Source: Heterodontus francisci (Eukaryota). Taken from it: a stretch of 64,000 nucleotides of DNA. The DNA is taken from assembly GCF_036365525.1 (NCBI RefSeq), contig NC_090387.1, positions 88,453,691 to 88,517,690 on the forward strand, given 5' to 3'. The notes under the pieces are model-generated. The model saw only the letters and a list, made by a program, of their open reading frames with translations, was not told where the DNA came from and did not search any database. Of the stretch, positions 17,096 to 62,614 are shown piece after piece (within the stretch, counting starts at the first letter, position 1; each line of letters begins with the position of its first letter). The position numbers and the translations under genes were made by a program.

Positions 17096-17416
17096 CGTGT
17101 ACAATCAGCTCAGTTCCATTCCCATTGGAAATCATTCCTTTCAAGTCTCTCACGCTGCAATAATAGACTCCCGAGTCCTGGAAAGTCACATTCAGCAGGT
17201 GGAACTCGGCAGATCCTTGCTTGAAAGGTGTCATTATTTTCCTTTTGTCTGTCTCCGAATCTAAAGTCCCGTCCTGGCCGTTTCTCCGCCAATAAACAGC
17301 CACCCATGCGTTAGGACGGAAAAGTGGGATAGAACAATAAATGGACACATTTTCACCTTTCACTGGAGTCAGCCGGGCGGGGAACTGAAGCACTGAGAGA
17401 GGAGTCTCTTTCGCAG
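17096..17416 (-). CDS. Gene A exon 2: VJ-type Ig V-set domain (NCR3/NKp30- or SIRP-like)
   Basis: VSIYC..VYWRR..FHLLNVTFQDSGVYYC..NGNGTELIVH, with a J-like GxG G strand in the same exon. Acceptor ttctgacAG, donor CG|GTgagt, 321 nt, phase 1-1. Confidence 0.93.
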
Positions 17417-17568
17417 CTGTCAGAAATAAATACAAAGACGTATAAGCAGAAATAATGATTAGGAAGATGGAAAGGGAGGACGTAATGCGTAAGATATAGA
17501 ACGAATAAACTGGACAACAGAATTATTATGCAATTCCTTAACTATCAGATAGGCCTTAATTTCTGCAC

Positions 17569-17623
17569 CTGTGTAAATAATGTCCAGGGCTGAGAGGTAC
17601 CACAACACATCCAGCACAAGCAT
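17569..17623 (-). CDS. Gene A exon 1: probable leader MLVLDVLWYLSALDIIYT
   Basis: ATG followed by 55 nt ending AG|GTgcag in phase 1, 152-nt intron to the V exon; same layout as gene B. Two Asp residues make it an imperfect signal peptide. Confidence 0.65.
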
Positions 17624-17664
17624 TCTGAGCAATGTCGATGAAATCGATTAGTCCTGCCGTAAAT

Positions 17665-17940
17665 CAGTAGGAAGTGATGAAAGGCACGGGGACGGAAAGA
17701 TTTGAAGACAATCGGGCATTGAACGTGTTGAAATATGGAGCACCACAAGATAGCTGACGCTACAACTTCAATGGACTGGTTTCACTTTTACGTCAGAGCT
17801 GAGAACGCACAGTGGAAGTTGAAGCCACCCACATAACGTGTTAAGATGAATACGGAACATTTTTGCATCATGCGAAAGTTTCCGAATTGATGCAGTTCTT
17901 GACTAATTGCAAACTTGACCAATTTGTACGGGGACTTTCA
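17665..17940 (-). promoter_or_regulatory. Putative proximal promoter of gene A with IRF-E, ETS and kB-like motifs
   Basis: AAAAGTGAAACC (minus, 17778-17789) fits the IRF element; AGGAAGTG near 17669; GGGACTTTCA at 17931-17940 is one mismatch from the kB site GGGACTTTCC. Short motifs only. Confidence 0.3.
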
Positions 17941-19096
17941 TGCAGGTGCAGTGAAAGCGGTCTGGCTCCATTCACTTTTTTCTCTACATCCTTTGGCCCC
18001 TGAGTCCTGGGGCCATGCAATGGAAACATCGCCGGAGAGTTGGGTGAGCATGGCATCTTTTTTTAATTAAAGCATCCTTCGGTCTCGAGGGCCCCACACA
18101 CCAACTGAAGATAATCCATCAGCCTGTCTTCTTGAAACAATATGTGGATAGTACAACTAGGGATGGGGCCGTTCTGGGCCTGGTATTGGGGAATGAGCCG
18201 GGCTAGGTGGTCGAAGCTTCAGTCGGGGAGCATTTCGGGAACAGTGACCATAATTCCATAAGTTATAAGGTACTTGTGGATAAGGATAAAAGTAGTCCTC
18301 GGGTGAAGGTGCTAAATTGGGGGAAGGCTAATTATAACAATATTAGGAAGGAACAGAAGAATTTAGATTGGGGGCGGCTGTTTGAGGGTAAATCAACATC
18401 TGGCATGTGGGAGTCTTTCAAATGTCAGTTGTTTAAAATCCAGGACTGGCATGTTCCTGTGAAGATGAAGGATAAGTTTGGCAAGTTTCGGGAACTTTGG
18501 GTAACGCGGGATATTGTGAGCCTAGTCAAAAAGAAAAAGGAAGCATTTGTAAGGGCTGGAAGGCCAGGAACAGGCGAATCCCTTGAGGAATATAAAGACA
18601 GTAGGAAGGAACTTAAGCAAGGAATCAGGAGGGCTAAAAGGGGTCATGAAAATTCATTGGCAAACAGAATTAAGGAAAATCCCAAGGCTTTTTATACGTA
18701 TATAAACAGCAAGAGAGTAACTAGTGAAAGGGTTGGCCCACTCAAGGGCAGAGAAGGGAATCTATTGTGTGGAGCCAGAGGAAATGGGCGAGGTACTAAA
18801 TGAGTACTTTGCATCGGTATTCACCAAAGAGAAGAACTTGGTAGATGATGAGCCTAGGGAAGGGAGTGTAGATAGTCTCAGTCATCTCATCATCAAAAAG
18901 GAGGATGTGTTGGGTGTCTTGCAAAGCATTAAAGTAGATACGCCCCCAGGGCCTGATGGGATCTACCCCAGAATACTGAGGGAGGCAAGGGAAGAAATTG
19001 CTGGGGCCTTGACAGAAATCTTTGCATCCTCATTGGCTACAGGTGATGTCCCTGAGGACTGCAGATTAGCCAATGCTGTTCCTTTGTTTAAGAAGG

Positions 19097-19712
19097 TGCA
19101 CAGGGAAAAATTGTGGCCGATGCTGCTGAATAAATACACACACACATATATATGAAGATGAAAATGTAGCCACATATAATTACAAAATGGGGTATTTACC
19201 CAAGGCATTGTGGGTCAAGTTAGTTAGCTTGCAGTCTTGAGCATGGTACTGCTCAGCACAGGCAATTAGCCTGACCAAGGAGGACCCCCATATCAGTGCA
19301 TAAGATAGCTGCTCTGTCAAATTGCGGACTACACAAAGCAACTAGGAATGCAGGCCTGATAGAGGTAGAAGGATTCATTGTGAAGACTCAAGGATAGTTG
19401 ATAAGGGGGGTTTGGTAAACAACCAGAGATGATCAGGGGTGTACCATGAGCTATTCCCACAACCACATAATGCATAATTAATAATTTTATTGGTAATGAA
19501 TGTAATATATGTAATCAATAACTGTTATGATTGGATTATGTCCAGCCAGGATGGGTTGAATATCTGTATATCTGTTGTGGATTTTCCTTTGGTCAGTGGA
19601 GAGGCATCTTGACAGCCCAGTACCTGATCCCGCTGGCGTAATGAAATAAACTGTTTGACATTGGAGCAGACCTGAGTGTCGAGTGATTCTTCTAGATTCA
19701 TTCCCGGTAACA
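19097..19712 (+). repeat. ERV 5' LTR
   Basis: Direct repeat of 24369-24957; AATAAA near 19645; ends in TAACA. Confidence 0.93.
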
Positions 19713-19714
19713 AT

Positions 19715-19732
19715 TGGTGTAGTCGGCAGGAT
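19715..19732 (+). promoter_or_regulatory. Primer-binding site, tRNA-Ser type
   Basis: TGGTGTAGTCGGCAGGAT, 2 nt after the LTR; one mismatch from TGGCGTAGTCGGCAGGAT. Confidence 0.8.
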
Positions 19733-21561
19733 CAGGTGTAAGTCAGCTCTACTGTAACCCCGAAGGGGCCAAGGGGGAGTTGGCTGGAGCCTGATCCCGA
19801 ACTTGAGAACAGGATTCGGCGGTCGCTTGATACCATCAGGAATACCGGGTGAGTATCTTTAAAGCTTATCCCGGGGACGGGTGATGTTTCGCGATCGACG
19901 AATGCCAAGTTTGTGAACAGGATCTGACCAATGATCAAACGGTGGTAGGTAGTTCATTAAGATACGGAGGCACTGTCGAGAAGGGTTTGGAGTATATGTA
20001 TGCGTATATATATCATAAGCTTGCTGTGTACCGACTGACTTGTGACCCCACAGTTAACCAGGAGACAGTCTACTACAAGTTGCGTAGGTTGAAAGCCGAC
20101 CTCTGAGAGTAGAATTTTAACGGTTCTAATCCTACCCAAGCCTGGTCAGTGAAAAGATAGAGCTCGAGCGGGGACCAGAGGGTTCCCTTACGTGTTATTT
20201 GGCAGTTCAGAACAGTTCAGAAACTTATCGATAAGATGATTAAATCTAATTGGAATCCCCACGACCCTGCCGCAAAACAAAGGGAGTGATGACAAAAAAA
20301 AGAAAATCATTCACTATTTTTATGGCAGAGTGACATAAAAGACTATGTTTAGAGTAAAAACAAGTTACTGTGTTTTTGATTCGACTGTGAGAATGTTGGA
20401 AGCGTCCACAAATGAATTGAATGTCTGGGATGTGCAGCTTGTGTTCTGTGGAACTTGTGTTCTGTAGAACTGACTGTCGTTAACTCTTTGTTGTCTGGCT
20501 TTAATGTTGAAAGCATGAGTCTGTTAAGTTGTTTGGAATAGAATGAATGTGAAAAATGATTGTTGAGTGTGTTCATTTCGATTTAAGATTGTACACCCAG
20601 GAATGGGATATAAAATTGAATTATATTTTAAGTTAAAATTTTATTTTGATTTTAAAAGTTGGTTTTGCAACTGTGAAAGGGCAATGAACAATTTTCGAAG
20701 AGATAACCTTCAGCCTTGAAGGTCTGAAGATGTTTGGCAGAAATCCAATTTGAAGTTTACAATTACTGCTTTAATTGGAGTTCCAGTTTAAAATCTATTC
20801 TAGTTTTTTTGGAGTTTAAATGTTTTACTGACTGTTTAAATGGAGGACATGTTTTACTGACTGTTTTAAGTAGCAAATGTCAAGAATTGGATATTGGTTT
20901 AAGGGAGAGATGGATAAACAAAGGAGATATGGGAAAGATTCTGTCTGTTTAAAAAGCTGGTGTTAAATCTTTTGTTATAAGAATGTTAAATAACTTTTTC
21001 TTTAGTTTTTGGTTTTATTACAGTCATTTGAAAAGGCGCCTGAAGAAAGAAGAAAAATGACGTAATTTACCTATCTTTTCAAAAAAGGCACGTGCTATTC
21101 TGTTCTGTGTGTAGTTACTAAGTATTATAAGTTAATAAGTCTGAATTAAATTAATACTGTTAAGGTTAACTAACCTGTTAAGTTGAGGAAAACTTTTAAA
21201 TGTTTATTGTCGTGAACCAGAATTTGTAATCATCTGGGTCATATAAAATCCTTGGACCAGAAACCTCTTACAACAGATGCTAAACGTTTGGAAGCAATTG
21301 GAGTTTAATCTAAAATGCTGTCTTTCCCGATGGAGATGGCTTTCTTTGAAGTTGATAATGTTACTAAAGATTTTGTTGTTTGAAAATCCTAAGGATACCA
21401 AAAAAAAACGTTTAAAATGGAGTTTAGTTCTTTTCGAAAAGGAAAAAAAGGTTACGTAAAGCGACACAGCTGAGAATGCTTTGCTCTGCCCCCTTGGAGA
21501 CAAGCAAAGAAATTAACCTAGCTGCAGCTATCTTTATCAATGAGACAAAGTGCTTGAGAAG

Positions 21562-21880
21562 GAGCGGCACAGTGGCGCAGTGGTTAGCACTGCAGCCACA
21601 CAGCTCCAGCGACCCGGTTTCGAATTTGGATACTGCCTGTGCGGAGTTTGCAAGTTCTCCCTGTGTCTGCGTGGGTCTTCGCCAGGTGCTCCGGTTTCCT
21701 CCCACATCTAAAGAATTGCAGGTGATAGGTAAATAGGCCATTGTCAATTGCTCCTCGCGTAGGGAGGTGATAGGGAATATAGGATTAGTGCAGGGTTAGT
21801 ATAAATGGGTGTTTGTTGGTCGGCACAGACTCAGTGGGCCGAAGAGCCTGTTTCAGTGCTGTATCCATAAATAAATAAAA
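21562..21880 (+). mobile_element. tRNA-derived SINE (HE1-like) inserted in the ERV
   Basis: Head gcggcacagtggcgcagtggttagcac; CR1-like tail gggccgaag..tttcagtgctgtat plus (TAAA)n; same family as 27825, 30784 and 42322. Confidence 0.88.
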
Positions 21881-22599
21881 AGGAGAAATAGTAGCACTTC
21901 TGTCTTGAATGAAAAAATGCAATTTCATCAAGCCTCGGCATAAGAAATTGGAATCGATAAACAAAATTAAATTGATATGAGTGGTTATTTAAAGCATTCA
22001 AAGGGAAATTTACTGTTATTTGAATTTGGAATAATCTGAGATGTCGAAAATTCAGGTTCAATTTGGTAAGTTATTTAAGGAACTAAGATGTCATCTAAGG
22101 TAAAAAAACAAACAAACCATATATAGTAATGCCTGGAATCAAATGGAAATGTTAGATTTCAGTTTTAAGGAGTTATGAATATTGATTGTAAAGGTTCTTC
22201 AGGGCCCAAAATGAAATAGAATTATAGTTCATGGAAATTGGCAATTAGATCTGGCAAGAGTCAATAAAGGAATTCTGGGGATAAACAAATGATGAAGTTA
22301 GAATTCAAACAGCTAAATTAATATCGTGTGAAATTTCCAAGAAGTCTAGAATTTTCCAGGAAAGTATAGATAAGACTGGCAATTGATAGTTTTCTCTTGG
22401 AGATATGAGTTTTTAAGAGGGCTACATTTGAAAGTCTGGCCATTTTTGATCTTTTGATAAGATCACCTGACGAACGGGTCTCAAACATGTTTACTGACTT
22501 GAGAAACAGCATGGCATGAAATGGTTAATGCAGCCAGTGCAGTGAGACAACTCACATCGAGAAAATGATTTTATAATAATCAGGATAAATTAAACACCT

Positions 22600-22860
22600 T
22601 AATAATGACAGGAAGGGCAATGAGGTTGCCACGGGATGTCATAGCAGGTAGTGAGGAAATAGGACCCGCAAGAGAAAGGGTCAAAAGATTTTTGAAGGAG
22701 TTGTGCAGACAACTGCACAAGGTGAGGCAGGAGGTTCTATAGAAACATGAAAGAGGAACAGGCAAAGGTGTCTGTTGTGGGAGACAAAGTAATGGTAAAG
22801 GGAAGGGCCGATGGAAACATTGATCCCAACCGAAGGTATATAAAGATAACAGCAAATGAT
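22600..22860 (+). pseudogene. ERV integrase C-terminal remnant
   Basis: Manual translation LIMTGRAMRLP..FLKELCRQLHKVRQEV, then VGDKVMVK after a stop and frameshift. Confidence 0.55.
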
Positions 22861-23083
22861 AGACTCCGAAATAAACACCACCTGGTACGCAAAGAGATAC
22901 CGGGAATGGAAGAATACACTTGAGAATGGACTACTCGGGGGGCTGGGAATAATGGTAGTATTGATAGGCATTTGGATTATTATTAGAAGGGCTACTAACT
23001 GGGCAAGGATTGTGGGGAATGAAGCCCGAGCACAACGGGACCATATAGATAATTTCGAAAGAGTAGAGATGATAAGAATATAA
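22856..23083 (+). CDS. 75-aa single-TM ORF inside the ERV (accessory gene or displaced env anchor)
   Basis: ATG to stop; NTT sequon; hydrophobic GLLGGLGIMVVLIGIWIII followed by RR. Confidence 0.4.
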   Translation: MIDSEINTTWYAKRYREWKNTLENGLLGGLGIMVVLIGIWIIIRRATNWARIVGNEARAQRDHIDNFERVEMIRI

Positions 23084-23599
23084 ATTAACTCCTGGATTCC
23101 CCAGGACATGTTCGGTCCCCACAGGTAGACATGGATCCCTCATCAGGGGTTACTCACAACATGGACAAGTACTAACACCTGGTGACCACCAGGGCAGTGT
23201 GTTTCAATTACAGATATAACCACCAGTGGAGAATGGGAAGGAACCGGACTGCAGTGACTGATGCTAATATCCGAAGAGGAAGAACAAAGACTCGCTAATG
23301 GATGCACAACGGATTAATGAAAGGAGTAGTAATATGGACTATATGAACTATGGGGCATTGTACAACATGTTAGATGGGAAGTGTATAATGGCGAGTAAAC
23401 CTATTTGAATGCATGGCTTACGGTGAATCCGGGCAAAGATGAAGTATGTGTACGGTGTTCCACAGATGGCCGTGCTAACTGCGTGACCAGACAGAAAGGG
23501 AAAGGGGTAACTGAGAGCTGTGTCTTTGGAATTGTTTGTGCCCCTCCCATTGGGCAACAGATGATAAGGAAAGTTGAAAGGAACATGGATATGTGTGGG

Positions 23600-24300
23600 T
23601 ACATCGAGCCCAGCTGAAGCGTTGGATGATAATGTAAAACATGAAATTGTGCCTGTGTTGATCAATGTCTCAGGTATCCGGATGCCACAGTATTGTTCAG
23701 ACAGGCTAAGAATATGTATAGTATGTTAGCCACTGTAATAGTGCGACAAGCTGCTGATGCCACAGGGGCCACAAGGATAAGGGGGCGTAACCCATTTCAT
23801 CGATACAAGAGGAAAAATATTAAATGATGAAGTAACAGGGATCAATACTGGAACTTCTTTAATCAATTCTTTACATACACAAGCGGTAAACGAGAATGTG
23901 GAACGACTCTGGAGGGTTATAAGGGAGCTCATAATTCAAGCTGAGGGGGCCCAATCAAACAGGTCTGGGGCAGAGAACAATGGAAATACAACGAGATGGA
24001 ATAGAGGTGCTGGAGGCCCATGCCAAGACTATTAATCACTTTGAATGCCGTACTCGGCAGGGACAATTGTGCCACGCTTATGGGCTGTGGATGGCGCAAC
24101 AAATGAGACACAACCTCGATCAGCTCCAAAGGGGGGAGGTACCAGATTGGATCGACAGGGCAATATCTCCCTCCGATATCATCTGACAGTGATTTTACAA
24201 GGTCGGGGTACCAGGGAAATGGAAGGTACTGCGTTTCCACCATCGAAACATCATACTGCGATGGAAGTTGATGCTGTCCCATACCATACCCAGACTTCTG
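23600..24300 (+). pseudogene. ERV env-like fusion glycoprotein remnant
   Basis: PVLINVSGIRMPQYC..HRYKR (furin site), frameshift, ILNDEVTGINTGTSLINSL..VNENVERLWRVIRELI..CHAYGLWMAQQMRHNLDQLQRGEVPDWI. Confidence 0.65.
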
Positions 24301-24368
24301 TTTTACCCCTCAACAAGCAGTCACTATATAACTAGCCTGGATAGTTTATATTCAACAGCAGGGGGGAT

Positions 24369-24957
24369 TGTAGAGGGACAAATTGTGGCCGATGCAGCTG
24401 AATAAATACGCACATCTATATATATAAGATGAAAATGTAGCCACATATTGCTACAAAATGGGGTATTTACCCAAGGCATTGTGGGACAAGTTAGTTAACT
24501 TGCAGCCTTGAGCATGGTACTGCTTAGCACAGGCAATTAGTCTGACCAAGGAGTCCCCCCCCATATCAGTGCATAAGACAGCTGCACAAAACAACTAGGA
24601 ATGCAGGCCTGATAGAGGTAGAAGGATTCATTGTGAAGACTCAAGGATAGTTGATAAGGGGGGGTTTGGTAAACAAGCTGAGATGGTCAGGGGCTATCCC
24701 AACAACCACATAATGCATAATTAATAATTTTATTGGTAATGAATGTAATATATGTAATCAATAACTGTTATGATTGGATTATGTCCAGCCGGGATGGGCT
24801 GAGTAACTGTCTCTCCGTTGTGGATTTTCCTTTGTTCAGTGGAGAGGCATCTGGACAGCCCAGTGACCTGTTCCCCGCTGGCGTAATGAAATAAACTGTT
24901 TGACATTGGAGCAGACCTGAGTGTCGAGTGATTGTTCCAGATTCATTCCCACTAACA
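24369..24957 (+). repeat. ERV 3' LTR
   Basis: Preceded by the PPT agcagggggggat; direct repeat of the 5' LTR with small deletions. Confidence 0.93.
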
Positions 24958-26371
24958 AAGGATAGCAAGGATAATCCAGGAAATTATCGGCTGGTGAGCC
25001 TTACATCAGTGGTAGGGAAATTATTAGAGAGGGTTCTTCGGGACAGGATTTACTCCCATTTGGAAACAAATGAACTTATTCGCGATAGGCAGCATGGTTT
25101 TGTGAAGGGGATGTAGTGTCTCATTAATTTGATTGAGTTTTTTGAGGAAGTGACGAAGATGATTGATGAAGGAAGGGCAGTGGATGTTATCTATATGAAC
25201 TTCAGTAAAGCCTTTGACAAGGTCCCTCATGGCAGACTGGTACAAAAGGTGAAGTCACACGGGATCAGAGGTGAGCTGGCAAAATGGATACAGAACTGGC
25301 TCTGTCATAGAAGACAGAGGGTAGCAGTGGAAGGGTGCTTTTCTGAATGGAGGGTTGTGACTAATGATGTTCTGCAGGGATCAGTGCTGGGGTGTTCGCT
25401 GTTTGTAGTATATATAAATGATTTGGAGGAAAATGCAGCTGGTCTGATGAGTAAATTTGTGGACGACACAAAGGTTGCAGGAGTTGTGGATAGTGATGAG
25501 GATTGTCAGAGGGTAGCGCAGGATATAGATCGGTTGGAGACTTGGGCAGAGAAGTGGAAGAAGGAGTTTAATCCGGACAAATGTGAGGTAATGCATTTTG
25601 GAAGGTCTAATGCAGGTGGGAAGTATACAGTAAATGGCAGGTCCCTTAGGAATATTGACAAGCAGAGAGATCTGGGCGTACAGGTCCACAGGTCACTGAA
25701 AGGGGCAACGCAGGTGGATAAGGTAGTCAAGAAGGCATATGGCATGCTTGCCTTCATCGTTCGGGGCATAGAGTATAAAAATTGGCAAGTCATGCTGCAG
25801 CTGTGCAGAGCCTTAGTTAGGCCACACTTAGAATATTGCGTGCAGTTCTGGTCCCCACACTACCAGAAGGATGTGGAGGCTTAGGAAAGGGTACAGAAGT
25901 GGTTTACCAGGATGTTGCCTGGTCTGGAGGGCATTAGCTATGAGGAGAGCTTGGATAAACTCAGATTGTTTTCACTGGAACGCTTGAGGTGGAGGGGCGA
26001 CATGATAGAGGTTTACAAAGTTATAAGTGGCATGGACAGAGTGGATAGTCAGAAGCTTTTTCCAGGGTGGAAGAGTCAGTTACTAGGTTTAAGGTGCGAG
26101 GGGCAATGTTTAGATGGGATGTGCGAGACAAGTTCTTTATACAGAGGGTTGTGAGTGCCTGGAACGTGCTGCCGGGGGAGGTGGTGGAAGCAGGTATGAT
26201 AGCAACGTTTAAGACACATCTTGACAAATACATGAATAGGCTGGGAATAGAGGGATACAGTCACCAGAAGTGCAGAAGGTTTTAATTTAGACAGGCATCA
26301 CGATTGGCGCCGGCTTGGAGGGCCGAATTGCCTGTTCCTGCGCTGTACTGTTTTTTGTTCTTTTGTTCTTT

Positions 26372-27570
26372 GATTACTTTGTGTCTGTCTTCACTGAGAA
26401 AGATACAAGAAATCTCCCAGAATTACAGTTCCAAGAGATTAGGGGGAATGAGGAACTGAAGGAAATTAGTATCAGTAAGAAGGTTTTATTGGATAAATTA
26501 ATGGGGCTGTAGGTTCATAAGTCCACAGAACCTTATATGCTTAGATGCCAGAGTGTTGAAAGAGGTAGCTACGGAGATAATGGATGCATTGGTGATCATC
26601 TTCCAAAATTCTATATATTCTGCAGCGGTTCCTGCTGATTTGAAGGTCACAATTGTCACCCCACGATTTACGAAGTGAGGGAGAGAGAAAACAAGGCATT
26701 ACAGACCTGTTTGCCTTTCATCTGTCGTTGGAAAAATGCTAGAATCTATTCTAAAGTTCTAAATGGATGTTGCATAATAATGATGCAATTGGGCATAGTC
26801 AACATGGATTTATAAATGGGTAATCATGTTTGACGAACCTGTTGGAGCTTTTTGAGGATGTTATTAACAGAATTGATAAAGGCGAGTCAGTGGACGTGGT
26901 ATACTTGGATTTCCTGATGGCTTTTGGTAAAGTCCCCCGCAGGAGCTTCGTTAACAAAATTAAAGCATATGGGATATGAGGTAATATACGGGCATGGATT
27001 AAGGATTGGTTAACAGGCAGAAAGCAGAGAGTAGGAATAAAGGGGTCATTCTCGCATTGGCAGGCTGTGACTAGTGGGGTGCATTTTTCTTGGCAGTTTT
27101 GCATTCAATTTTACCTATTCGCATTTCTCAACGAAATTGCTTCCACTGCAGGATCATAGGCTCATAGAAAATAGGATTATAGGAAATTGGAGCAGGGGTA
27201 GGCCATTTGGACTGTCGAGCCTGCTACGCCATTCAAACGGATCGTGGTTGATCATCTACCTCTGCGCCACCCCTCCACCTGCGCCCCACTATCCGCATAT
27301 CCTTTGCTGCCATTAGTATCCAGAAATCTATCGATTTCTGTCTTGAACATGCTCAATGATCGAGCTTCCACGGCCCACTGCGGGAGAGAATTCTACATAT
27401 TTCTCACCCTAGGAGTAAAGAAATTCCACCTCATATCAGTTTTAAATGGCCTGCCCCTTGTTTTGAGACTGCGTCCCTGGATCTAGACTTATCAACCAGA
27501 GGAAGCACCGTATCCACATCTACCCTGTCATGCCCTGTAAGAAGTTAGCAAGTTTCAATGACATCACCTC
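26372..27570. mobile_element. CR1 fragments (plus RT piece ~26372-27080; minus 3' tail ~27150-27570)
   Basis: QHGFING*SCLTNLLELFED on plus; reverse-complement CR1 tail after it. Confidence 0.75.
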
Positions 27571-27824
27571 TCTGAATCCCTCACAAATTTGGAACAGTGT
27601 AATAAGTGCTTCATCAACTGCAGTATTGCCACATGCTCACAGAGAGGCGATAAGCATTCTATAAGTGGATCACGTGTAAATAGTCGCTTCGTAACATATC
27701 CATCAATAAATGGAAGGCAAAAATAAATTAATAGTTCATCAGATAAGTCAAAAATCACTGCGCTTGTCGTCTAATCTTTCTTTGAGATTTATAGTTTTCC
27801 TTTCTGCAATTAACTATGCAATTT

Positions 27825-28159
27825 GGGCGGCACAGTGGCTCAGTGGTTAACACTGCAGCATCACAGCTCCAGCGATCCAGGTTTGGTTCTGGGTACTGCC
27901 TGTGCTGAGTTTGCAAGTTCTCCCTCTGACCACGTGGGTTTCCGTCGGGTGCTCCGGTTTCCTCCCACAGCCAAAGACTTGCAGTTTGATAGGTAACTTG
28001 GCCATTGTAAATTGCCCCTAGTGTAAGTAGGTGGTAGGAGAATGGTGAAGATGTGGTAGGGAATATGGGATTAATGTCGGATTAGTATAAATGGGTGGTT
28101 GTTAGTCGGCACAGACTCGGTGGGCCGAAGGGCCGGTTTCAGTGCTGTATCTCTAAAAA
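27825..28159 (+). mobile_element. tRNA-derived SINE (HE1-like)
   Basis: gggcggcacagtggctcagtggtt head; CR1-like tail. Confidence 0.88.
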
Positions 28160-28796
28160 TGATTAGTGCGTGGTGGCACAAATATGTTTGCTACCAAGAG
28201 AATCTGCCAATCCCCGGTAATGTGTCTCTCTTGAATCCTAATACCACTTGAAACTCATTCTGTTTTCGATCGCTTTTGTCTCCTGCATTGTTTTTATTTC
28301 TCTACATCTCCGTGGGACATGACAAGGTTCGGAATCAAATACCAAGTTGCTTTCAAGGAATTCCGGAAGCAGGAAACATCGCATAGCATTAGCGATGTAT
28401 AAACACTGACGTAAAATTGCAGCCCCTTTTAAAGGCACTCCGATTTTGCCAGTTGTGAATGTTTGCATTCTTTTTACAATAGTCTATAACCGGCCCCAAC
28501 ACTCACTTTCAGTTCATTTCGCCAAGACTATTTTAGTCCCAGCATCTTTGTGATTGGATGGTTCTCTCACTAAACTCTGCACTTTGATGCATTAATAATG
28601 TTCACTTCAGCTTTGAAAGTCATGTAAAACGTTGCAGAATCAGTTTGAGGAAATAAATGTATCTACGTTGTCACCTCCGATCACTTCCTTTTCTTCCACA
28701 TATTCCTAATCCACAATTCTGTTCAGACCTAAGGTGCCCACAGTGATGCATCATTGCTCCTGATTTTCTGTATCGACAAGATGGTTCCTGGCTACA

Positions 28797-52150: not shown

Positions 52151-52269
52151 ACAAGTAGCTGCTCCCAGTCGACGGAGTACTGATAATTGCAGTCGCTGGC
52201 TTGAGTCTGGAGTCATCCGTTCAATTTTCTATCAGTGGGATTTGTTTGAACTTGAATTGGTGCTTACTT

Positions 52270-53170
52270 TGAATTACACAGAGCACAGAAACAGGCCATT
52301 CAACCCAACCAGAGCACAGCAGTATTTGTGCTCCAATCTAGCCTCCTTCCATCCTTCCTCATCTAAATCTATCAGTATAACCCTTTAGTCTATTCTCCAT
52401 TATATGCTTATATAACTTCCCCTTGAATGCACCTATGCTATTCTTTTCAACTATTCCCATTAGTTACAATTTTCACATTCTCGCCGTGGTTTGGGTAAAA
52501 TTGTTTCTTCTGAATTCCTCACCTGATTTTCTGTTGACTACCTCATACTAATATCGTTCAGTGTTGTTCTTTGCCACAAGTGAAAATGCCTCTGTGTCTA
52601 TTATATTGCAACCGGTTTAATTTTCAAGACCCCTATTTCCCTCCCCTATGTTGAAATTAATTTACCAATTAAATGCCCATTCTCCAATTAGTGTGTTCTT
52701 GTAATTTATTGTTGCCATTCTCAATATTGACTACACCACTTCCAATAATTCGGTTCTATTCACCAACTTCGAAATTGTGCATTGCATTCCAAAGTTTAAA
52801 TTGTCAATGAAAATTGGGACCAATAGTGGTCCAGTACTAATCCTTGTGAGATACTACTTTCCACCATCTACCACTACGCACAAGCCAGCCTTTATCTGTA
52901 CTCTCTGTTTTCTGTTTGCAGTCAGCTAGCTATCCTTCCTGCCTGCTACTCTCCCACTGAATCTGCAAGCTTTGATGTTATACATGTGTCTACGTACATT
53001 ACCTGATTCAAGTCCAACTGGAAGTCCTGATATTTTACAATAATCACATTACCCACTTCTGCTCTCACAGTTATCTCTCCAAAGAATTCAATGAGGTTTG
53101 TCAAACAAAAATTTCCCTTTTGAAATACGTGCTGAGTATTCATCAATATGTTTTGGGTTTCTAGATGGTT
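52270..53170 (-). mobile_element. Old CR1 fragment
   Basis: QHVFQKGNFCLTNLIEFF; tail near 52280. Confidence 0.65.
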
Positions 53171-53588
53171 TGCTGTTTACTTATGTTGATGTGTCAGGTT
53201 CACTGTGTATAACGCTATGCAAAGAATACAAATTTAACCTCGAGCTTGACGACATCGTTGTGACTTCAAAAAAATTCTTACTTACTTACTTACTTCCTGT
53301 ACGAGCACCATGCGACGACATTGGGAGAGTAAGTTCCAGCAACTTTACAGTACAGAATTTACAGAATTCGCTGAGATAAAAAGATACTCAAAAGAGATAG
53401 CGGAATGAGATTCTTTACCTCGTTAGTTAGAGTTGGGTTCGAACCAATATCTGAGTCATGCAAGAACAGGGACTTGACTATCGTACAACCTTTCGCAGGT
53501 GGCGACGCATATCATGCATGTTTTTTTTTTAGAATATTACAGCGCAGTACAGGCCCTTCGGCCCTCGATGTTGCGCCGATCATCTGAC

Positions 53589-56480
53589 CTACACTATTCC
53601 ATTTACATCCATATGTCTATCCAATGACCACTTAAATGCCCTTAAAGTTGGCGAGTCTACTACTGTTGCAGGCAGGGCGTTCCACGCCCCTACTACTCTC
53701 TGCGTAAAGAAACTACCTCTGACATCTGTCCTATATCTTTCACCCCTCAACTTAAAGCTATGTCCCCTCGTGTTTGCCATCCTCATCCGAGGAAAAAGAC
53801 TCTCACTATCCACCCTATCTAACCCTCTGATTATCTTGTATGTCTCTATTAAGTCACCTCTCCTCCTCCTTCTCTCTAACGAAAACAACCCCAAGTCCCT
53901 CAGCCTTTCCTCGTAAGACCTTCCTTCCATACCAGGCAACATCCTAGTAAATCTCCTCTGCACCCTTTCCAAAGCTTCGACATCCTTCCTATAATGCGGT
54001 GACCAGAACTGCACGCAATACTCCAGGTGCGGCCTCACCAGAGTTTTGTACAGCTGCATCATGACCCCGTGGCTCCGAAACTCGATCCCCCTACTAATAA
54101 AGGCTAACACACCATATGCCTTCTTAACAGCCCTATTAACCTGGGTAGCAACTTTCAGGGATTTATGTACCTGGATACCAAGATCTCTCTGCTCATCTAC
54201 ACTACCAAGAATCTTCCCATTAGCCCAGTACTCTGCATTGCTGTTACTCCTTCCAAAGTGAATCACCTCACACTTCTCCGCATTAAACTCCATTTGCCAT
54301 CTCTCAGCCCAGCTCTGCAGCCTATCTATGTCCCTCTGTACCCTACAACACCCTTCGACACTATCCACAACTCCACCGACCTTCGTGTCATCCGCAAATT
54401 TACTAACCCACCCTTCTACACCCTCATCCAGGTCGTTTATAAAAATGACAAACAGCAGTGGCCCCAAAACAGAACCTTGCGGTACACCACTAGTAACTAA
54501 ACTCCAGGATGAACATTTGCCATCAACCACCACCCTCTGTCTTCTTTCAGCTAGCCAATTTCTGATCCAAAGCTCTAAATCACCTTCAACCCCATACTTC
54601 CGTATTTTCTGCAATAGCCTACCGTGGGGAACCTTATCAAACGCCTTACTGAAATCCATATACACCACATCCACGGCTTTACCCTCATCCACCTGTTTGG
54701 TCACCTTCTCGAAAAACTCAATAAGGTTTGTGAGGCACGACCTACCATTCACAAAACCGTGCTGACTATCGCAAATGAACTTATTCTTTTCAAGATGATT
54801 ATAAATCCTGTCTCTTATAACCTTTTCCAACATTTTACCCACAACCGAAGTAAGGCTCACAGGTCTATAATTACCAGGGCTGTCTCTACTCCCCTTCTTG
54901 AACAAGGGGACAACATTTGCTATCCTCCAGTCCTCCGGCACTACTCCTGTCGACAATGACGACTTAAAGATCAACAACAACGGCTCTGCAATCTCCTCCC
55001 TGGCTTCCCAGAGAATCCTAGGATAAATCCCATCTGGCCCAGGGGACTTATCTATTTTCACTCTTTCCAAAATTGCTAACACCTCCTCCTTGTGAATCTC
55101 AATCCCATCTAGCCTAGTAGGCTGTATCTCAGTAATCTCCTCGGCAACATTTTCTTTTTCTACTGTAAATACTGACGAAAAATATTCATTTAACGCTTCC
55201 CCTATCTCCTCTGATTCCGCACACAACTTCCCACTACTATCCTTGATTGGCCCTGTTCTAACTCTTATCATTCGTTTATTCCTGATATACCTATAGAAAG
55301 CCTTAGGGTTTTCTTTGATCCTATCCGCCAATGACTTCTCGTGTCCTCTCCTTGCTCTTCTTAGCCCTCCCTTTAGATCCTTCCTGGCTAGCTTGTAACT
55401 CTCAAGCGCCCTAACTGAGCCTTCACGTCTCATCCTAACATAAGCCGCCCTCTTCCTCTTGACAAGCGCTTCAACTTCTTGAGTAAACCACGGCTCCCTC
55501 GCTCGACAACTTCCTCCCTGCCTGACAGGTACATACTTATCAAGGACACGCATTAGCTACTCCTTGAATAAGCTCCACATTTCGTTTGTGCCCATCCCCT
55601 GCAGTTTCCTTCCCCATCCTACACATCCTAAATCTTGCCTAATCGCGTCATAATTTCCTTTCCCCCAGCTATAATTCTTGCCCTGCGGTATATACCTGTC
55701 CCTGCCCATCGCTAAGGTAAACCTAACCGAATTGTGATCACTATCGCCAAAGTGCTCACCTACATCTAAATCGAACACCTGGCCGGGTTCATTACCCAGT
55801 ACCAAATCCAATGTGGCATCGCCCCTGGTTGGCCTGTCCACATACTGTGTCAGAAAACCCTCCTGCACACACTGAACAAAAACAGACCCATCTAAAGTAC
55901 TCGAACTATAGTATTTCCAGTCAATATTTGGAAAGTTAAAGTCCCCCATAACCACTACCCTGTTACTCTCGCTCCTGTCGAGAATCATCTTCGCTATCCT
56001 TTCCTCTACATCTCTGGAACTATTCGGAGGTCTATAGAAAACTCCCAACAGGGTGACCTCTCCTCTCCTGTTTCTAACCTCGGCCCATACTACCTCAGTA
56101 GACGAGTCCTCAAACGTCCTTTCTGCCGCTGTAATACTTTCCTTGATTAACAATGCCACACCCCCCCCTCTTTTACCCTCTTCTCTGTTCTTTCTGAAAC
56201 ATCTAAATCCCGGAACCTGCAACATCCATTCCTGCCCCTGCTCTACCCATGTCTCTGAAATGGCCACAACATCAGGATCCCAGGTACCAACCCATGCTGC
56301 AAGCTCACCCACCTTATTCCGGATGCTCCTGGCGTTGAAGTAGACACACTTTAAACCAAGTTCTTGCTTGCCAGTGCCCTCTTGCGTCCCTGTAACCTTA
56401 TCCCCTACCTCACTACTCTCAACAGCCTGTACACTGGAACTACAATTTAGGTTCCCATTCCCCTGCTGATTTAGTTTAAA
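53589..56480 (-). pseudogene. CR1 ORF2 (APE endonuclease + RT) with one premature TAG at 55557-55559
   Basis: The 251-aa and 654-aa ORFs are in the same frame, separated by FKE*LMR. The frame stays open upstream through CVYFNARSIRNK to the ORF1 end with no ATG there. Confidence 0.92.
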
Positions 56481-57412
56481 CCCCCCCGAAGAGCACTAGC
56501 AAATCTCCCCCCCAGGATATTGGTACCCCTCTGGTTCAGGTGAAGACCATCCTGTTTGTAGAGGTCCCACCTACCCCAGAAAGAGCCCCAATTATCCAGG
56601 AAACCAAAACCCTCCCTCCTACACCATCCCTGCAGCCACGTGTTCAACTCCTCTCTCTCCCTATTCCTCTCTTCGCTAGCACGTGGCACAGGCAACAACC
56701 CAGAGATAACAACTCTGGTTGTTCTCGCTCTAAGCTTCCACCCTAGCTCCCTGAATTTCTGCCTTAAATCCCCATCTCCCTTCCTACCTATGTCGTTGGT
56801 GCCTATGTGGACCACGACTTGGGGGTGCTCCCCCTCCCCCTTAAGGATCCCAAAAACACGATCGGAGACATCACGTACCCTGGCACCTGGGAGGCAACAC
56901 ACCAACCGTGAGTCTCTCTCGTTCCCACAGAACCTCCTATCTGTTCCCCTAACTATGGAGTCCCCAATGACTAATGCTCTGCTCCTCTTCCCTTTTCCCT
57001 TCTGAGCAACAGGGACAGACTCTGTGCCAGAGACCTGCACCCCATTGCTTACCCCTGGTAAGTCGTCCCCCCCAACAGTATCCAAAACGGTATACCTGTT
57101 GTTGAGGGAAACGGCCACAGGGGATCCCTGCACTGCCTGCTGGTTCCCTTTCCTTCCCCTGACGGTAACCCATCTACCTACTTCTTTTACCTGAGGTGTG
57201 ACTGCCTCCCTATAACTCCTGTCAATAATCCCCTCCGCCTCCCGAATGATCCGAAGTTCATCCAGCTCCAGCTCCAGTTCCCTAATGCGGTCTGCGAGGA
57301 GCTGGAGTTGGGTGCACTTCCCGCAGATGCAGTCAGCAGGGACACTCTTGGCGACCCCTACCTCCCACATTCTGCAGGAGGAACATACAACTGCCTTTAC
57401 CTCCATTCCCAC
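56471..57412 (-). CDS. CR1 ORF1p (Cys zinc finger / leucine zipper + SGNH esterase domain), 313 aa
   Basis: CSSC..CGKC, coiled coil IRELELELDEL, VIGDSIV, CLPGA, HIGTND, DGLHLN. Confidence 0.93.
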   Translation of the reverse strand: MGMEVKAVVCSSCRMWEVGVAKSVPADCICGKCTQLQLLADRIRELELELDELRIIREAEGIIDRSYREAVTPQVKEVGRWVTVRGRKGNQQAVQGSPVAVSLNNRYTVLDTVGGDDLPGVSNGVQVSGTESVPVAQKGKGKRSRALVIGDSIVRGTDRRFCGNERDSRLVCCLPGARVRDVSDRVFGILKGEGEHPQVVVHIGTNDIGRKGDGDLRQKFRELGWKLRARTTRVVISGLLPVPRASEERNREREELNTWLQGWCRREGFGFLDNWGSFWGRWDLYKQDGLHLNQRGTNILGGRFASALRGGLN

Positions 57413-57605
57413 TATTCTAGATTCCCAATAAATCTACTGAAAAACCAAACGAAAAAAAAAGTCAAAACTTGTTCGCTTAGCAATCCGACGGACTGAACTT
57501 TTTAAATAAAAAGCTTACCTTATCAACACACTAGAGTCCTTTTTTTTTGGTTAGAGGAGGAGGGTGGATGGGAGACACTACACGTGTAGTGTCTCGGGTA
57601 CTGCC

Positions 57606-58071
57606 ACTGCCCAAATAAATAGTTTTCCCCTACCCAGCAGTCCCCGGTCCTCCGAAACAAAAAAGGGATTAACTTGCAACTTACTGAAATTGACCGCTCA
57701 GCTGAAAGTCCGCTCCGCACCTCGTTCTGTCAACGCTGCTCCTCGCAAAAGACAAAGATTTTAAAACTGCCCAAATAAATAGTTTTCCCCTACCCAGCAG
57801 TCCCCGGTCCTCCGAAACAAAAAAGGGATTAACTTGCAACTTACTGAAATTGACCGCTCAGCTGAAAGTCCGCTCCGCACCTCGTTCTGTCAAGGCTGCT
57901 CCTCGCAAAAGACAAAGATTTTAAAACTGCCCAAATAAATAGTTTTCCCCTACCCAGCAGTCCCCGGTCCTCCGAAACAAAAAAGGGATTAACTTGCAAC
58001 TTACTGAAATTGACCGCTCAGCTGAAAGTCCGCTCCGCACCTCGTTCTGTCAAGGCTGCTCCTCGCAAAAG
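57606..58071 (-). repeat. 160-bp tandem repeat, ~2.9 copies, at the CR1 5' end
   Basis: Units start at 57606, 57766 and 57926 and are almost identical. Confidence 0.95.
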
Positions 58072-59169
58072 GAGACTTTATTGGACTTCCAAACAATGCA
58101 TTGCAGTTGCACACTTTTTCGTAGAAAATAAGGCTCACTACACTCAGAACACAAGATGCATTAAAACGTGCAGTTGATTGTACAATGGCAAAGGTTTTCT
58201 GAAAGTGAAAAGCTGCATTAATAAACACTTCGCACTATCGGGTAGAAATGTTGGAATCGGTGTTGTAAACCTATTAGCTGATTAGTTAAATGTACCACTT
58301 CGTAAGGAACCATGTGGAAAATGCTGGTGGTGTGTTAACTTTCCGTTCTGTGCTGAGTGAGGCGATCTCAACTGGGCACGGACGTGTATTATGCAATTAG
58401 CACTACTGCCATTAAGAGACAATAGCGACAATTCAGCGAGCTTCCGGTTTTTGATCGTGAGCAACTCAATCTAGATGGAGAATACTTATGCGGATATTAT
58501 AGAGGCCAAAATCCAGGTCATCCCTAATATCACCAACAATTAATGGGTCTACAGATATTCACTGTCTTGACTCACATATGCAAAATGGTCACAAAGAGAA
58601 AGCTATGAAGCTGATTATTTTTCCGTGAAACCGTGTTCAATACTGTTGGGATGATAAGGAAGTAGGAAACGGGCGGGTAACAAAACAAGGGGAACACTAT
58701 CCCTTTGCACACCATTCAGCGACATGGTTATAATTATAAACATCAAAATGCAGGCAGTGAAATTTTGAAGTGAGAATTATTATCAATGCTGCAGTTTAAT
58801 GTGTTACAATACTTGTTTTCTATAAATAACAGTAGCTGAATGGTATTCTAAAAGTATCATACTGGTTTCGGCATCAGCAGATGGAAAATTCGGATGTGTA
58901 ACAGGATTTCAACCGTTTTTCAACATGAATGCGGGCGATATGTTAATTCGCCCGCTTTGGAAACTGTGGTTTCAATAATGCGTACTGAACGTGATTTGTG
59001 ACGCAGTGGAACGTTTCACTCTTGATGGCAGTTGCTTGTGTTTGATTGGTCAGTGGTTGTTGTACCATCGATAAAATCACCAATTATATGGTATGAACTG
59101 TGTGCTAACTGCCTTATTCCACTTGCGTGGAATAAATTAGATGACTTATTAATGGAAAAGGAGTGACAT

Positions 59170-61200
59170 GCCGACACAGCACTGCAACCAGCCAATTGTC
59201 CTCAGCCACAATCTGTAACCTCATGGCCCGGCATATCGTCCACTCTACCATTATCATCAAGGCGGGGGATCAATCCTCAGGCAACGAAGAGTGCAGGTGT
59301 ATGCCAGGAGCAGCACCAGGCATACCTCAAAATGAGGTGTCAACCTGGTGAAGCTATGACCCAGGATTGCTTGCATGTGAAACAGTGTAAGCAGCATGCG
59401 ATAGACCAAGCTAAGTGATCCCGTAACCAACGGTCCATATCTAAGCTCTGCAGTCCTGCCACATCAGTCCTGAATGGTGGTGGACAAGTAAGAAGCAGGA
59501 GGAGGTGGCTGCACAAATATCCTTATCCACAATAGCGGGGGAGCCCAGCACATCAATGCAAAACATAAGGCTGAAGCATTTGCAACAATCCTCAGCCAGA
59601 GGTTTTGAGTGGATGCTCCGTCTCAGCCTCCTCATGAAGTCCCCAGCATCACAGATACCAATTTTCAGCCAATTCAATTCACTCCGCGTGAGATCAAGAA
59701 ACAACTGAAGGCACTGGATAAGAGCTTGCAGTGCCCCTAGCCAAGCTGTTCCAGTACAGCTACAACACTGGCATCTAACTAGCAATATGAAAATTTTCCC
59801 AGGTATGTCCTGCACATAAAAAAGCCGTGCAAATCCACCCCAGCCAATTACTGGCCCATCAGTCTACTCTCGATCATCAGTAATGTGAAGGAAGGCGTCA
59901 TTGGCAGTGTGATCAAGCGGCAGTTGCTTAGCAATAACCTGCTCAGTGACGATCAGTTTGGGTTCTGCCAGGGCCACTCAGCTCTTGACCTCATTACAGC
60001 CTTGGTTCAAATATGGACAAAAGAGCTGATCACCAGAGGTGAGGTGAGGGTGACTGCACTTGACATCAAGGCAGCATTTGACCGAGTATGATATCAAGAA
60101 GCTCCAGCAAATCTGCAGTCAATGGGAATCAGGGGGGAATCTCTCTGCCAGTTAGAATCATACCTAGCACATAGGAAGATGGTTGTAGTTGCTGAAGATC
60201 AGTCAACTCAGTTCTAGGACATCACTGCAGGAGTTCCTCTGGGTCGTGTCCAAGGCACAATCATCTTCAGCTGCTTCATCAATGACCTTCTTTCAATCAT
60301 AAGGTCAGAAGTGGGAATGTTCGCTGATGATTGCACAATGTTCAGCACCATTCCTGACTTCTCAGATACTGAAGCAGTCAGTGTAGAAATGCAGCAGGAC
60401 CTGGGCAATATCCAGGCTTGGGCTGATAAGTGGCAAGTAACATTCACGCCACACAAGTGCCAGGCAATGACCATCTCCAACAAGAGAGAATTTAACCATT
60501 TCCCCTTGACATTCAATGGCATTACCATCGCTGCATCCCACACTATAAACATCCTAGGGGCTTCCATTGACCAGAAACTGAACTGGAGTAGCCATATAAA
60601 CACCGTTGCTACAAGAGCATGTCAAACGCTCGGAATCCTACGGCGAGTAAGTCATCTCCTGACTCCCCAAAGACTGTAAGGCACAAGTCTGGAGTGTGAC
60701 GGAATACTCTCCACTTGCCCGGATGGGTGCAGCTCCAACAACACTCATGAAGCTGGACACCATCTAGGACAAAGCAGCCCGCTAGATTGGCACCCCAAAC
60801 ATTCACTTCCTCCACCACCGACGCACATTGGCAGCAGTTTGTACCATCTACAAGATGCACTGCAGCAACGCACAAAGGCTGCTCAGACAGCACCTTTCAA
60901 ACCCGCGACCTCTACCAACTAGAAGGACAAGGACAGCAAATGCATGGGAACACCAGCACGTGCAAGTTCTCTCCAAGTCGCACACCATCCTGACTTAGAA
61001 CTATCTTGCCATACCTTCACAGTCGCTGGGTCAAAATCCTGGAACTTCCTTTTTCATAGCACTGTGGGTGTACCTACCCCACATGGTCTGCAGCGGTTCA
61101 AGAAGGCCGCTCACCATTCATCTTCTCATGGGCAATTAGGTACAGGCAATAAATGCTGGCCCGGCCAGCGACGCCCACGTCCCATGAAACAAGCAAAACA
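59170..61200 (+). mobile_element. CR1-group LINE (second family), decayed
   Basis: QFGFCQGHSALDL..ALDIKAAFDRV, MFADDCT; 3' tail near 61190. Confidence 0.88.
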
Positions 61201-62050
61201 AAACGTAAAACAATGCCCCGTTATTCGTAAAAAAATATATAGACAAGAACACGTTAAACACATGGAATCTGTTTATTAAAATACGTTAGTTAATCAACAA
61301 GATGACAGAACCGTGAATAGCAACATACGCATTATTCAGTGGCACGGATTGAATCCAAATGGAATAGAGGGAATAATTCAATTTTCTATCAGTTGGCAAT
61401 GGTCTACAAAGGTAATAAGAAAGTCCTGCATTTAGTTATGTAGCATTGAATTCCCCGAACGTCTGATATGTCTGCGCACATTGATTGCATTGAGTGCAGT
61501 TGGTATAGAACATCTGATAAGCGGGCGAAGGTAGTCGTCATTCGTGATCGCAACATCCCATAAATAGCAAAGCTGCGTGAGTGGCCAATCAGCTTTTACC
61601 GTTGTTGTTCAAGGAACAATGTTGGATCGCAGACGGGAAAAAAAACTGCCATATGTTCGAGAGAAAACCGCCAGATTTTCATACAGACAGGACAATCTAG
61701 TCGGGCGCACATGGTCTCAAAGGTACTCATGTCCATTAACACATATCTATAACAAATTGCCCACCATAGCATATTTGCAACAGTTTATAAAATCTTTTCT
61801 GTGCAGCTACAGCAGCGTTAAACAACCAATAGGATGTCCTTTAGAGTTAGCAATTTCAGTTGATATCGTGCATAATGTGGGTAGCTCTAGTTCTACTTTA
61901 TGATCAATGGGCAGATAGAGATCTCACATTTCAGCGAAAGGCACGAACTGACACGCCCATGTGAAAGCGAACATTCTCGCGTCATTCAACTCTGATGCTT
62001 TATTCATTATTTACTTTAAAGAAAATAATCGCTTCAGTTCGCTGCTCAAG

Positions 62051-62102
62051 ATGCTGAGAGCCTTGCTTCCTTACATGGTGTTTCTGGCAATCAGTTGTCC
62101 AG
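62051..62102 (+). CDS. Gene B exon 1: leader MLRALLPYMVFLAISCP
   Basis: aagATG, hydrophobic core, donor AG|GTaaat in phase 1; 200-nt pyrimidine-rich intron. Confidence 0.85.
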
Positions 62103-62302
62103 GTAAATTTATTTTGTATCAACGCTCTCTCATTTCTTAAATTGACGAATATCATTTAATGTTCTCTTTTAGCTCTTCATGTTACTTTCCGCTTATTTTT
62201 CATTATTTCTTTTCTACTTCTGAACTTTCTGCCTGTTTGTCAACTGGACAATTTAAATTGATGTTTCTTTGTTTAATGCTGCGTTTAATACTTTTTCGAC
62301 AG

Positions 62303-62614
62303 CCGCTGGCAATTCTTCATCAACCGTGACACAGACTCCCGAATCCAAAGTGATGAGAGGAGGCTCCGTGACTCTTTACTGCATATTTCCCATCTTTTCA
62401 GACAAGAGACCAGTGAAAGTGCATTGGTGGAGAGACGGGCAGGGTGGGTTCCTGGAGGAAAGTGTAGACAGGAGAATCCGGTTTTATTTCTTAAACCAAG
62501 GGGGAGCTGCCTTTAAACTTACAGCCGCGAGAGCCGAGGACGCGGGGCTCTATTACTGCAGAGTGTCACACAAAGAGGTTGCAAATGGTACCGGCACAAG
62601 ACTGGCTGTATATG
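62303..62614 (+). CDS. Gene B exon 2: VJ-type Ig V-set domain, paralog of the gene A V domain
   Basis: VTQTP..GGSVTLYCIFP..VHWWRDG..EDAGLYYCRV..NGTGTRLAVY; acceptor ttttcgacAG, donor TG|GTgagt, 312 nt, phase 1-1. Downstream exons are not seen in the window. Confidence 0.92.

Follow-up and report, generated by a model that had tools for sequence, protein, structure and literature searches.

Two spliced, non-rearranging VJ-C1 receptor genes of Heterodontus francisci: likely inhibitory-type members of a large cartilaginous-fish paired-receptor family

We analysed a 64,000-nt stretch of the Heterodontus francisci genome (the window; G000:C17:88,453,691-88,517,690, C17 being the contig of the gene family described below), which carries two receptor genes, gene A on the minus strand and gene B on the plus strand, each coding for a leader, a V domain with a J-like strand (VJ), a C1 domain, a transmembrane (TM) segment and a cytoplasmic tail. 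As a first-pass annotation had proposed, the genes lie head to head about 44 kb apart, with 44,427 bp between their ATGs, and share the layout of leader, short intron and phase-1 V exon, with GT..AG phase-1 junctions in both; the leader-VJ intron measures 152 bp in gene A and 200 bp in gene B. Splice joints were sought in contigs of runs X1-X3, which come from one sample of one study, possibly the assembled animal, and none of which is recorded as RNA; we took X1 and X2 to be RNA, which is a guess, because splice joints are what RNA gives. Window coordinates are used throughout, and gene B runs past the window end (loci L031/L032) in continued numbering. The features are as follows.

17569..17623, minus strand: gene A leader exon (split leader), with ATG and GT donor; joint 17416/17569 in X1 and X2 contigs
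17096..17416, minus strand: gene A germline-joined VJ exon; Pfam V-set E 7.9e-10; joint to C1 in X1 and X2
12498..12779, minus strand: gene A C1-set exon; Pfam C1-set E 5.9e-14; splice joints in contigs
7673..7786, minus strand: gene A TM exon, uncharged, skipped in some forms; joints 12498/7786 and 7673/7134, and TM-skipping joints
7091..7134, minus strand: gene A cytoplasmic exon 1; contig joints and sequence
6233..6343, minus strand: gene A cytoplasmic exon 2 (SPSYAVL and most of TVYAQY); contig joints and sequence
5943..6092, minus strand: gene A last coding exon (VAYASP, AEYAEI, stop); sequence and protein comparison
62051..62102, plus strand: gene B leader exon; sequence, 62% identical to the P0030 leader
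62303..62614, plus strand: gene B germline-joined VJ exon; Pfam V-set E 7.5e-9, 76% identical to Heptranchias P0030
62615..64000, plus strand: start of the gene B V-C1 intron, up to the window end
62983..63267, plus strand: gene B 285-nt repeat-derived cassette exon; V-cassette-C1 joints in one X1 contig
66981-67286 (continued numbering), plus strand: gene B C1 exon; tblastn with P0030, C1-TM joint in X1 and X2
69728-69826 (continued numbering), plus strand: gene B TM exon, uncharged; C1-TM joint in X1 and X2
72868-72911 (continued numbering), plus strand: gene B tail exon 1; splice sites and homology only
79512-79622 (continued numbering), plus strand: gene B tail exon 2 (LKYVTL); splice sites and homology only
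80127-80267 (continued numbering), plus strand: gene B tail exon 3 (IVYATA, AVYAQV, stop); splice sites and homology only

The seven exons of gene A (leader, VJ, C1, TM and three tail exons) gave a 358-aa spliced model identical to P0002, with which the TM exon agrees, while a TM-less form agrees with P0001. Proteins identical to gene A are present among the Heterodontus francisci RefSeq models as 'tapasin-related protein-like' and 'tyrosine-protein phosphatase non-receptor type substrate 1-like'. Among the rows listed, introns were joined at GT..AG in 6/6 cases in X1 contigs and in 5/6 in X2, and contigs of both runs showed C1 joined beyond the TM exon, which would give a secreted product. 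Run X1 also contained a TM-skipping joint that links 7786 to the first tail exon, and RefSeq isoform X1 (370 aa) has a short upstream extension of the TM exon (~7820-7787, minus strand). For run X3 no A or B exon joints were listed, although contigs cannot show absence.

Extension beyond position 64000 dispelled the concern that gene B might be an orphan exon pair: C1, TM and three tail exons were found downstream, without a charged TM residue, completing an open seven-exon leader-VJ-C1-TM-tail model of 354 aa. Its leader-V joint was not seen in contigs, and this joint and those of the tail were placed by splice sites and homology to Heptranchias P0030; the contig of X2 record 7 joined V, C1 and TM, followed by 429 letters off the locus. 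The cassette exon, which has 27 blastn hits among the fetched loci, introduces a stop two codons after V, so its inclusion would yield a V-only product or a decay target.

An AlphaFold model confirmed the V, C1 and TM parts. No exact heptamer or nonamer of a recombination signal sequence (RSS) was found around either VJ exon (gene A: 17000-17500). A rearranging immunoglobulin (Ig) or T-cell receptor (TCR) gene was rejected as an identity for these loci, with a single exon for V and the J-like strand, no exact RSS nearby, and V joined straight to C1. The tails of both genes are rich in tyrosine motifs. Gene B carries one canonical ITIM (immunoreceptor tyrosine-based inhibitory motif), LKYVTL, together with IVYATA and AVYAQV, and this tail combined with an uncharged TM makes gene B of predicted inhibitory type. 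Gene A retains four tyrosines at family positions (SPSYAVL, TVYAQY, VAYASP and AEYAEI); VAYASP is a degenerate ITIM at a place where its neighbour, gene Z, and several relatives have LTYASL, and no alternative base was listed for its codon in X1 or X2. The difference suggests that gene A is likely an attenuated inhibitory member that lost the canonical ITIM of the family.

Searching the genome for paralogues of A and B bore out the expectation of a diversified multigene family. All 46 V matches obtained with the gene A query and 43 of the 44 obtained with gene B lay on C17, their union being 47 V exons: 23 sites at 88.4-90.8 Mb, 21 at 76.1-77.0 Mb, two at 71.0 Mb and one at 92.5 Mb. A same-strand C1 exon followed within 12 kb in 42/47; these V and C1 counts are lower bounds, and breaks or the lack of a core cysteine affect at least 7 V exons. 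One such case, L161 (C17:88.95 Mb), has an open V frame missing both core cysteines and an intact C1 8 kb downstream. GxG occurs in the J-like strand of 76/81 V domains, the aromatic F/W-G-x-G of Ig and TCR in only 2/81, and an N-glycan sequon in 66/81. The abundance of the sequon and the rarity of the aromatic argue against V-V pairing of the Fab or TCR kind and suggest that the proteins would act as single chains. In the second domain only C145 and C199 are invariant cysteines across 55 proteins.

Database relatives at E<=1e-15 were all from cartilaginous fish (68/68; sharks, rays and Callorhinchus), as were 46/49 in a second profile search, the three others being weak (E ~1e-11, 19-34% query coverage). 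No bony-vertebrate orthologues were seen, for which word-seeded searches are weak evidence of absence; a full-library hidden Markov model (HMM) search was swamped by giant multi-Ig proteins and was used only for outgroups. Sharks and rays have members of both tail classes and Callorhinchus has long-tailed ones, which indicates that the family is older than the elasmobranch-chimaera split.

Within this family, A and B turned out to be no special pair. The residues that the first-pass annotation had called distinctive of the two genes are all present but proved to be family-wide, C..P.F recurring in 21/43 paralogue V domains, D.R[KR] in 29/43, NG.G[ST].[LI] in 26/43 and [KQR]G[GS][AS] in 17/43. 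The difference noted in CDR3-equivalent (complementarity-determining region 3) length is real, the FG (CDR3-like) loop of gene B being 2 residues shorter than that of gene A. Similarity between the two V domains exceeds chance (E 6.8e-12 in a genome-wide search), and both fall in the same family rather than in unrelated clades; gene B nevertheless ranks mid-list among the 38 paralogues of gene A (38% identity vs 65% for Z), and gene A lies near the bottom of the gene B list. The V tree (100 rows) placed A with Z and other shark and ray proteins (97/97) and B with P0030 (100/99), the C1 tree was concordant (A group 98/96, B group 99/91), and a clade of A plus B was neither rejected (p-AU 0.435) nor shown. 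On these trees, A and B are distant relatives within the family, each placed beside its own kin from other species.

The head-to-head arrangement and the splicing of both genes in runs X1 and X2 could be read as marks of a co-regulated functional pair, or of two chains of a TCR-like heterodimer, but we regard either as highly improbable. The genes are separated by a 44-kb repeat-rich spacer, 67% of which consists of repeats recurring in other fetched loci; head-to-head orientation is common in the cluster (5/22 neighbour pairs at 88-91 Mb); both TMs are uncharged; the two supported subclades are separate, with no A-plus-B clade shown; and a glycan sequon occupies the place of the J aromatic, which speaks against a heterodimer. 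An on/off pair was likewise rejected on account of the uncharged TMs, the long tyrosine-bearing tails of both genes and a V identity of 37.5%. The first-pass suggestion of an inhibitory/activating complex thus holds for the family, which has both types, and fails for A and B as opposite partners. No additional V or C1 exon was detected by HMM inside the spacer. Among the many LINE (long interspersed nuclear element) fragments between the genes is a nearly intact element at 53592-57433 (minus strand), presumably of the CR1 class, with long ORF1/ORF2 (open reading frame) stretches of 320, 312 and 655 aa.

TM exons were identified in 37 of the 40 genes for which 10 kb of downstream sequence was fetched, and 39 genes with a usable V, from these loci and the five genes around the window, were classed by eye: 13 have a TM arginine and 26 are uncharged, full tails having been recovered for only part of the uncharged genes. 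Seven Arg genes use a distinct TM exon and, where readable, their tail ends soon after, and six carry the Arg within an otherwise inhibitory-type TM exon. Members of the Arg class include the 90.04, 88.90 and 76.55 Mb genes and gene D. Gene Z exemplifies the long tails, with ITIM-type LSYAAL, LTYASL and VEYSEI. Arg/short-tail twins of the gene A subfamily exist in other species, with ectodomain identities of 90%, 88% and 77%. In this genome the only trace of an activating twin of A is an orphan broken A-type C1, L053 (C17:88,392,329-88,392,598), which contains a stop and lacks the first cysteine, with no V or TM exon nearby in readable sequence. A divergent member at L088/L147 (C17:76.62 Mb) has a Cys-rich juxtamembrane segment with CxxC, conserved in P0215, which we take to be reminiscent of the kinase-binding clasps of CD4/CD8; the recovered part of its tail has no tyrosine, and its TM resembles that of two genes at 71.0 Mb.

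The two TM classes are intermingled by descent: on the V tree of 39 genes the class changes 11 times, and on the C1 tree of 30 genes it changes 10 times. In six sister pairs of opposite class, identity peaked over V or V-C1 and dropped downstream. The V-intron-C1 block of the 76.81/76.85 Mb pair is 94-100% identical and the next intron ~80-89%; the 88.81/88.90 Mb pair shows 71-97% over V-C1 and 40-60% after C1; and the 76.77/76.95 Mb pair shows 97-99% over the V exon and 74-88% over the upstream flank. The downstream fall is sharp in these three pairs; D/89.30 shows a moderate one, and C/88.73 and 90.29/89.43 a slight one. This pattern is consistent with gene conversion or ectodomain swapping between classes. 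In gene D a TM Arg was gained, and two tail tyrosines still present in its sister (KLTYAAL, STEYAQV) were lost (KLTQAAL, STEFAQV), which looks like a switch from inhibitory to activating type.

What was observed comprises the splicing and exon structure of the genes, the size of the family, and its two tail classes with near-identical ectodomains. Different genes in a cluster, with ITIM-tailed members and charged-TM, short-tailed members that resemble each other in their ectodomains, are traits of paired receptors, and the family-level pattern matches the definition in the available text of PMC3533184, with signalling as a prediction; there, ITIM tails inhibit, through SHP-1/2 in the case of SIRP-alpha, and members with a TM Arg or Lys pair with adaptors carrying immunoreceptor tyrosine-based activation motifs, Arg pairing with FcR-gamma in LILRA. 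We consider it probable that A and B, which are spliced, non-rearranging VJ-C1-TM genes, represent two old inhibitory-type lineages of a large cartilaginous-fish paired-receptor family. Each protein would be a single chain on leukocytes whose V domain binds a ligand. In long-tailed members, phosphorylation of the ITIM-type tyrosines would recruit SHP-1/SHP-2 and damp activation; gene B would signal through its one canonical ITIM, and gene A would probably be attenuated. Activation would fall to members that have a TM Arg and whose tail is short or depleted of tyrosines, through pairing with an adaptor of the FcR-gamma/CD3-zeta type; a TM exon of the zeta/FcR-gamma type is present in the genome, on C10. 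V-C1 blocks are likely copied between the classes by ongoing gene conversion, as would be expected if activating twins counter pathogens that exploit inhibitory receptors.

Several observations weigh against this interpretation. The RNA evidence comes from a single sample of one study, which may be the assembled animal. The gene A tail has no strict-consensus ITIM or immunoreceptor tyrosine-based switch motif (ITSM). The class split is not clean: P0041 combines a TM Arg with a long ITIM-bearing tail, a border Arg goes with long tails in P0061 and P0071, short tails without Arg are seen in several proteins, and an Arg at the TM edge occurs both in g76.81, classed as Arg, and in g76.87, classed as uncharged. 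Pseudogenes occur among the Arg members, and stops interrupt the tail remnants of gene C, so that some of the 'activating' class may reflect decay. Support for family monophyly (87/94) is not starred. Nor did the loops yield an arms-race signal: dN/dS, which the first-pass annotation had suggested computing, was 0.56 in loops and 0.44 in framework (p=0.09 for the difference), giving no case for positive selection. This estimate (Nei-Gojobori) used 13 close pairs, without three V exons that are degenerate and a fourth that has a stop, and converted pairs lend it little power; the FG loop had 8 nonsynonymous and 2 synonymous changes, too few to judge, and synonymous sites are saturated between A and B (pS 0.71).

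In RefSeq many members go by the name 'tyrosine-protein phosphatase non-receptor type substrate 1-like', and the top two ESM Atlas clusters for the full protein are SIRP-alpha (0.96). Together with the VJ+C1 build, the resemblance to the multi-tyrosine SIRP-alpha tail, and the lack of a separate SIRP-type V among those found in this genome, this could point to a cartilaginous-fish SIRP branch that has lost one C1 and diverged, and that uses a CD47-like self marker to regulate phagocytes. ITIM-bearing inhibitory members are indeed present (LKYVTL in B and the motifs of Z, with only degenerate motifs in A). We nonetheless judge a SIRP origin improbable. A lungfish SIRP-type V control matched SIRPs of the PDB at E 1e-14 and no C17 gene, whereas the gene A V had no SIRP among 23 hits at E<=1e-4; the ectodomain alone brought up no SIRP-named ESM Atlas cluster among the matches listed; and SIRP-like rows fell outside the family in the V tree (87/94). 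SIRP is linked to NSFL1C at human 20p13; the SEP-domain (NSFL1C-type) genes of this shark are on C16 and C5, not at the C17 locus, and no V or C1 was found within 70 kb of the one on C16. The TM charge of SIRP-beta, which couples to DAP12, is Lys, unlike the Arg of this family. Like SIRP-alpha/beta/gamma, the family is clustered and combines joined-VJ-type V and C1-type domains with ITIM inhibitory and adaptor-coupled activating types (PMC3716694 and PMC3533184, as far as their available text goes); unlike them, it has a single C1, spliced directly to the TM in A and B, vs three Ig domains in all (PMC3716694), no SIRP-type V, ~45 copies and another chromosomal neighbourhood. A CD47 family search gave no match anywhere, and its controls likewise gave none. 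The best match of a validated SIRP-type V in this genome was to Ig light-chain-like V genes (E 3e-4), and true SIRPs may be absent or very diverged here.

Fold comparison did not discriminate among candidate relatives, Z running from 16.4 to 13.4 across Rst, Neph1, B7-H6, NKp30, UrIg2 and SIRP-gamma, with Fab light chains also matched. B7-H6 was among the top structural matches (Z 15.7, root-mean-square deviation 4.3, 190 aligned), which, with the V+C architecture and RefSeq labels including 'NCR3 ligand 1-like' and 'CD276 homolog', might suggest B7/B7-H6-like ligands or co-signalling molecules rather than paired receptors. However, unrelated Ig proteins of two domains score equally well (Rst Z 16.4, Neph1 16.0), the J-like GxG is near-general in the V domains, and the Arg-TM/short-tail and ITIM-tail classes share ectodomains; we hold the B7 alternative to be very improbable, and retain a paired-receptor family as the preferred reading.

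The family also falls outside NCR3, NITR and UrIg, as it does outside SIRP. It resembles NCR3/NKp30 in its single-exon VJ, GxG motif and glycan sequon in the G strand. NCR3/NKp30 activates through a TM Arg and has no C1 domain, and a shark NCR3 family has reportedly been treated by Kinlein 2021. Unlike NCR3, most V exons of this family have a C1, and NCR3 is linked to the MHC (major histocompatibility complex) according to the accessible part of PMC12227049. None of 64 MHC class I matches lay on C17; C29 and three small contigs account for all of them. On C29 there is also a separate germline VJ exon, L172 (C29:14,973,331-14,973,636), which we take to be NCR3/NKp30-like from its motifs.

The tails of PRARP and of the tetrapod VJC1 genes carry ITIM/ITSM. 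Their VJ-C1-TM build with tyrosine motifs is found in this family as well, and like it they are non-rearranging VJ-C1 membrane proteins, so far as PMC10751288 and PMC11599192 could be consulted; unlike PRARP, which PMC10751288 places in the MHC, the family lies on C17, with MHC class I on C29, and forms a large paired expansion. No search returned a PRARP sequence, so that comparison with PRARP/VJC1 is by description only. NITRs of ray-finned fish are the closest functional analogue in scale, with 30-44 clustered germline-VJ receptors in inhibitory, Arg-TM activating and secreted forms (bioRxiv 10.1101/2021.06.11.448072, available text); the second domain of the present family is, unlike theirs, a Pfam C1-set with two invariant Cys and not a six-Cys I domain with a J motif. 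UrIg/UrIg2 share a non-rearranging elasmobranch VJ exon, a split leader and C1-type domains, but have at least three C1, where this family has one, and antibody-like homodimers and MHC or Ig/TCR-complex linkage, and the available text of PMC12227049 does not describe them as an ITIM/Arg paired cluster. LILR/PIR/KIR likewise set ITIM members beside TM-Arg members that pair with FcR-gamma, with soluble forms in addition (PMC3533184, in the part available); their ectodomain type is unrelated, and the likeness is one of analogy only.

A bolder reading would make the family the missing complex of natural killer (NK) receptors in cartilaginous fish: a paired system, equivalent to KIR/Ly49, that senses MHC class I and consists of a single antigen-receptor-like VJ-C1 chain, derived from a non-rearranging Ig/TCR precursor, kept since before the shark-chimaera split and placed off the MHC chromosome. 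We think this unlikely.

C17 also carries CBF-beta and MCD domains, and exons ~100 and 160 kb left of the first C1 exon of the cluster (L192:2-1045 and L198:5066-5287, both minus strand) matched Pfam Pyr_redox and, weakly, Aa_trans (oxidoreductase and transporter); we take L192 to be OSGIN1-like and L198 to be SLC38A-like. Together these domains and flanks point to what is presumably a human-16q-like chromosome. Adjacency of the MLYCD type was rejected, the MCD domain lying at 24.5 Mb on C17 and not beside the cluster.

The genes of the family are already in RefSeq, under misleading automatic names. No description of the family was found in the open literature, as far as that is available, although Ohta 2019, Kinlein 2021, Janes 2023 and the supplements of the elephant shark genome paper (PMC3964593) may mention its genes; a large cartilaginous-fish paired-receptor family of this kind is apparently undescribed. 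Diversified innate receptor families are known from bony fish (NITR, DICP) and tetrapods (SIRP, LILR, KIR), and the papers that could be searched describe no VJ-C1 family of such build in cartilaginous fish. A large VJ-C1 gene set outside the MHC bears on the debate over the origin of antigen receptors, and conversion tracts with repeated inhibitory-to-activating switches make the evolution of paired receptors testable. The ~45 genes, common to sharks, rays and chimaeras, are candidates for receptors of NK or myeloid cells in the oldest vertebrates to have adaptive immunity.

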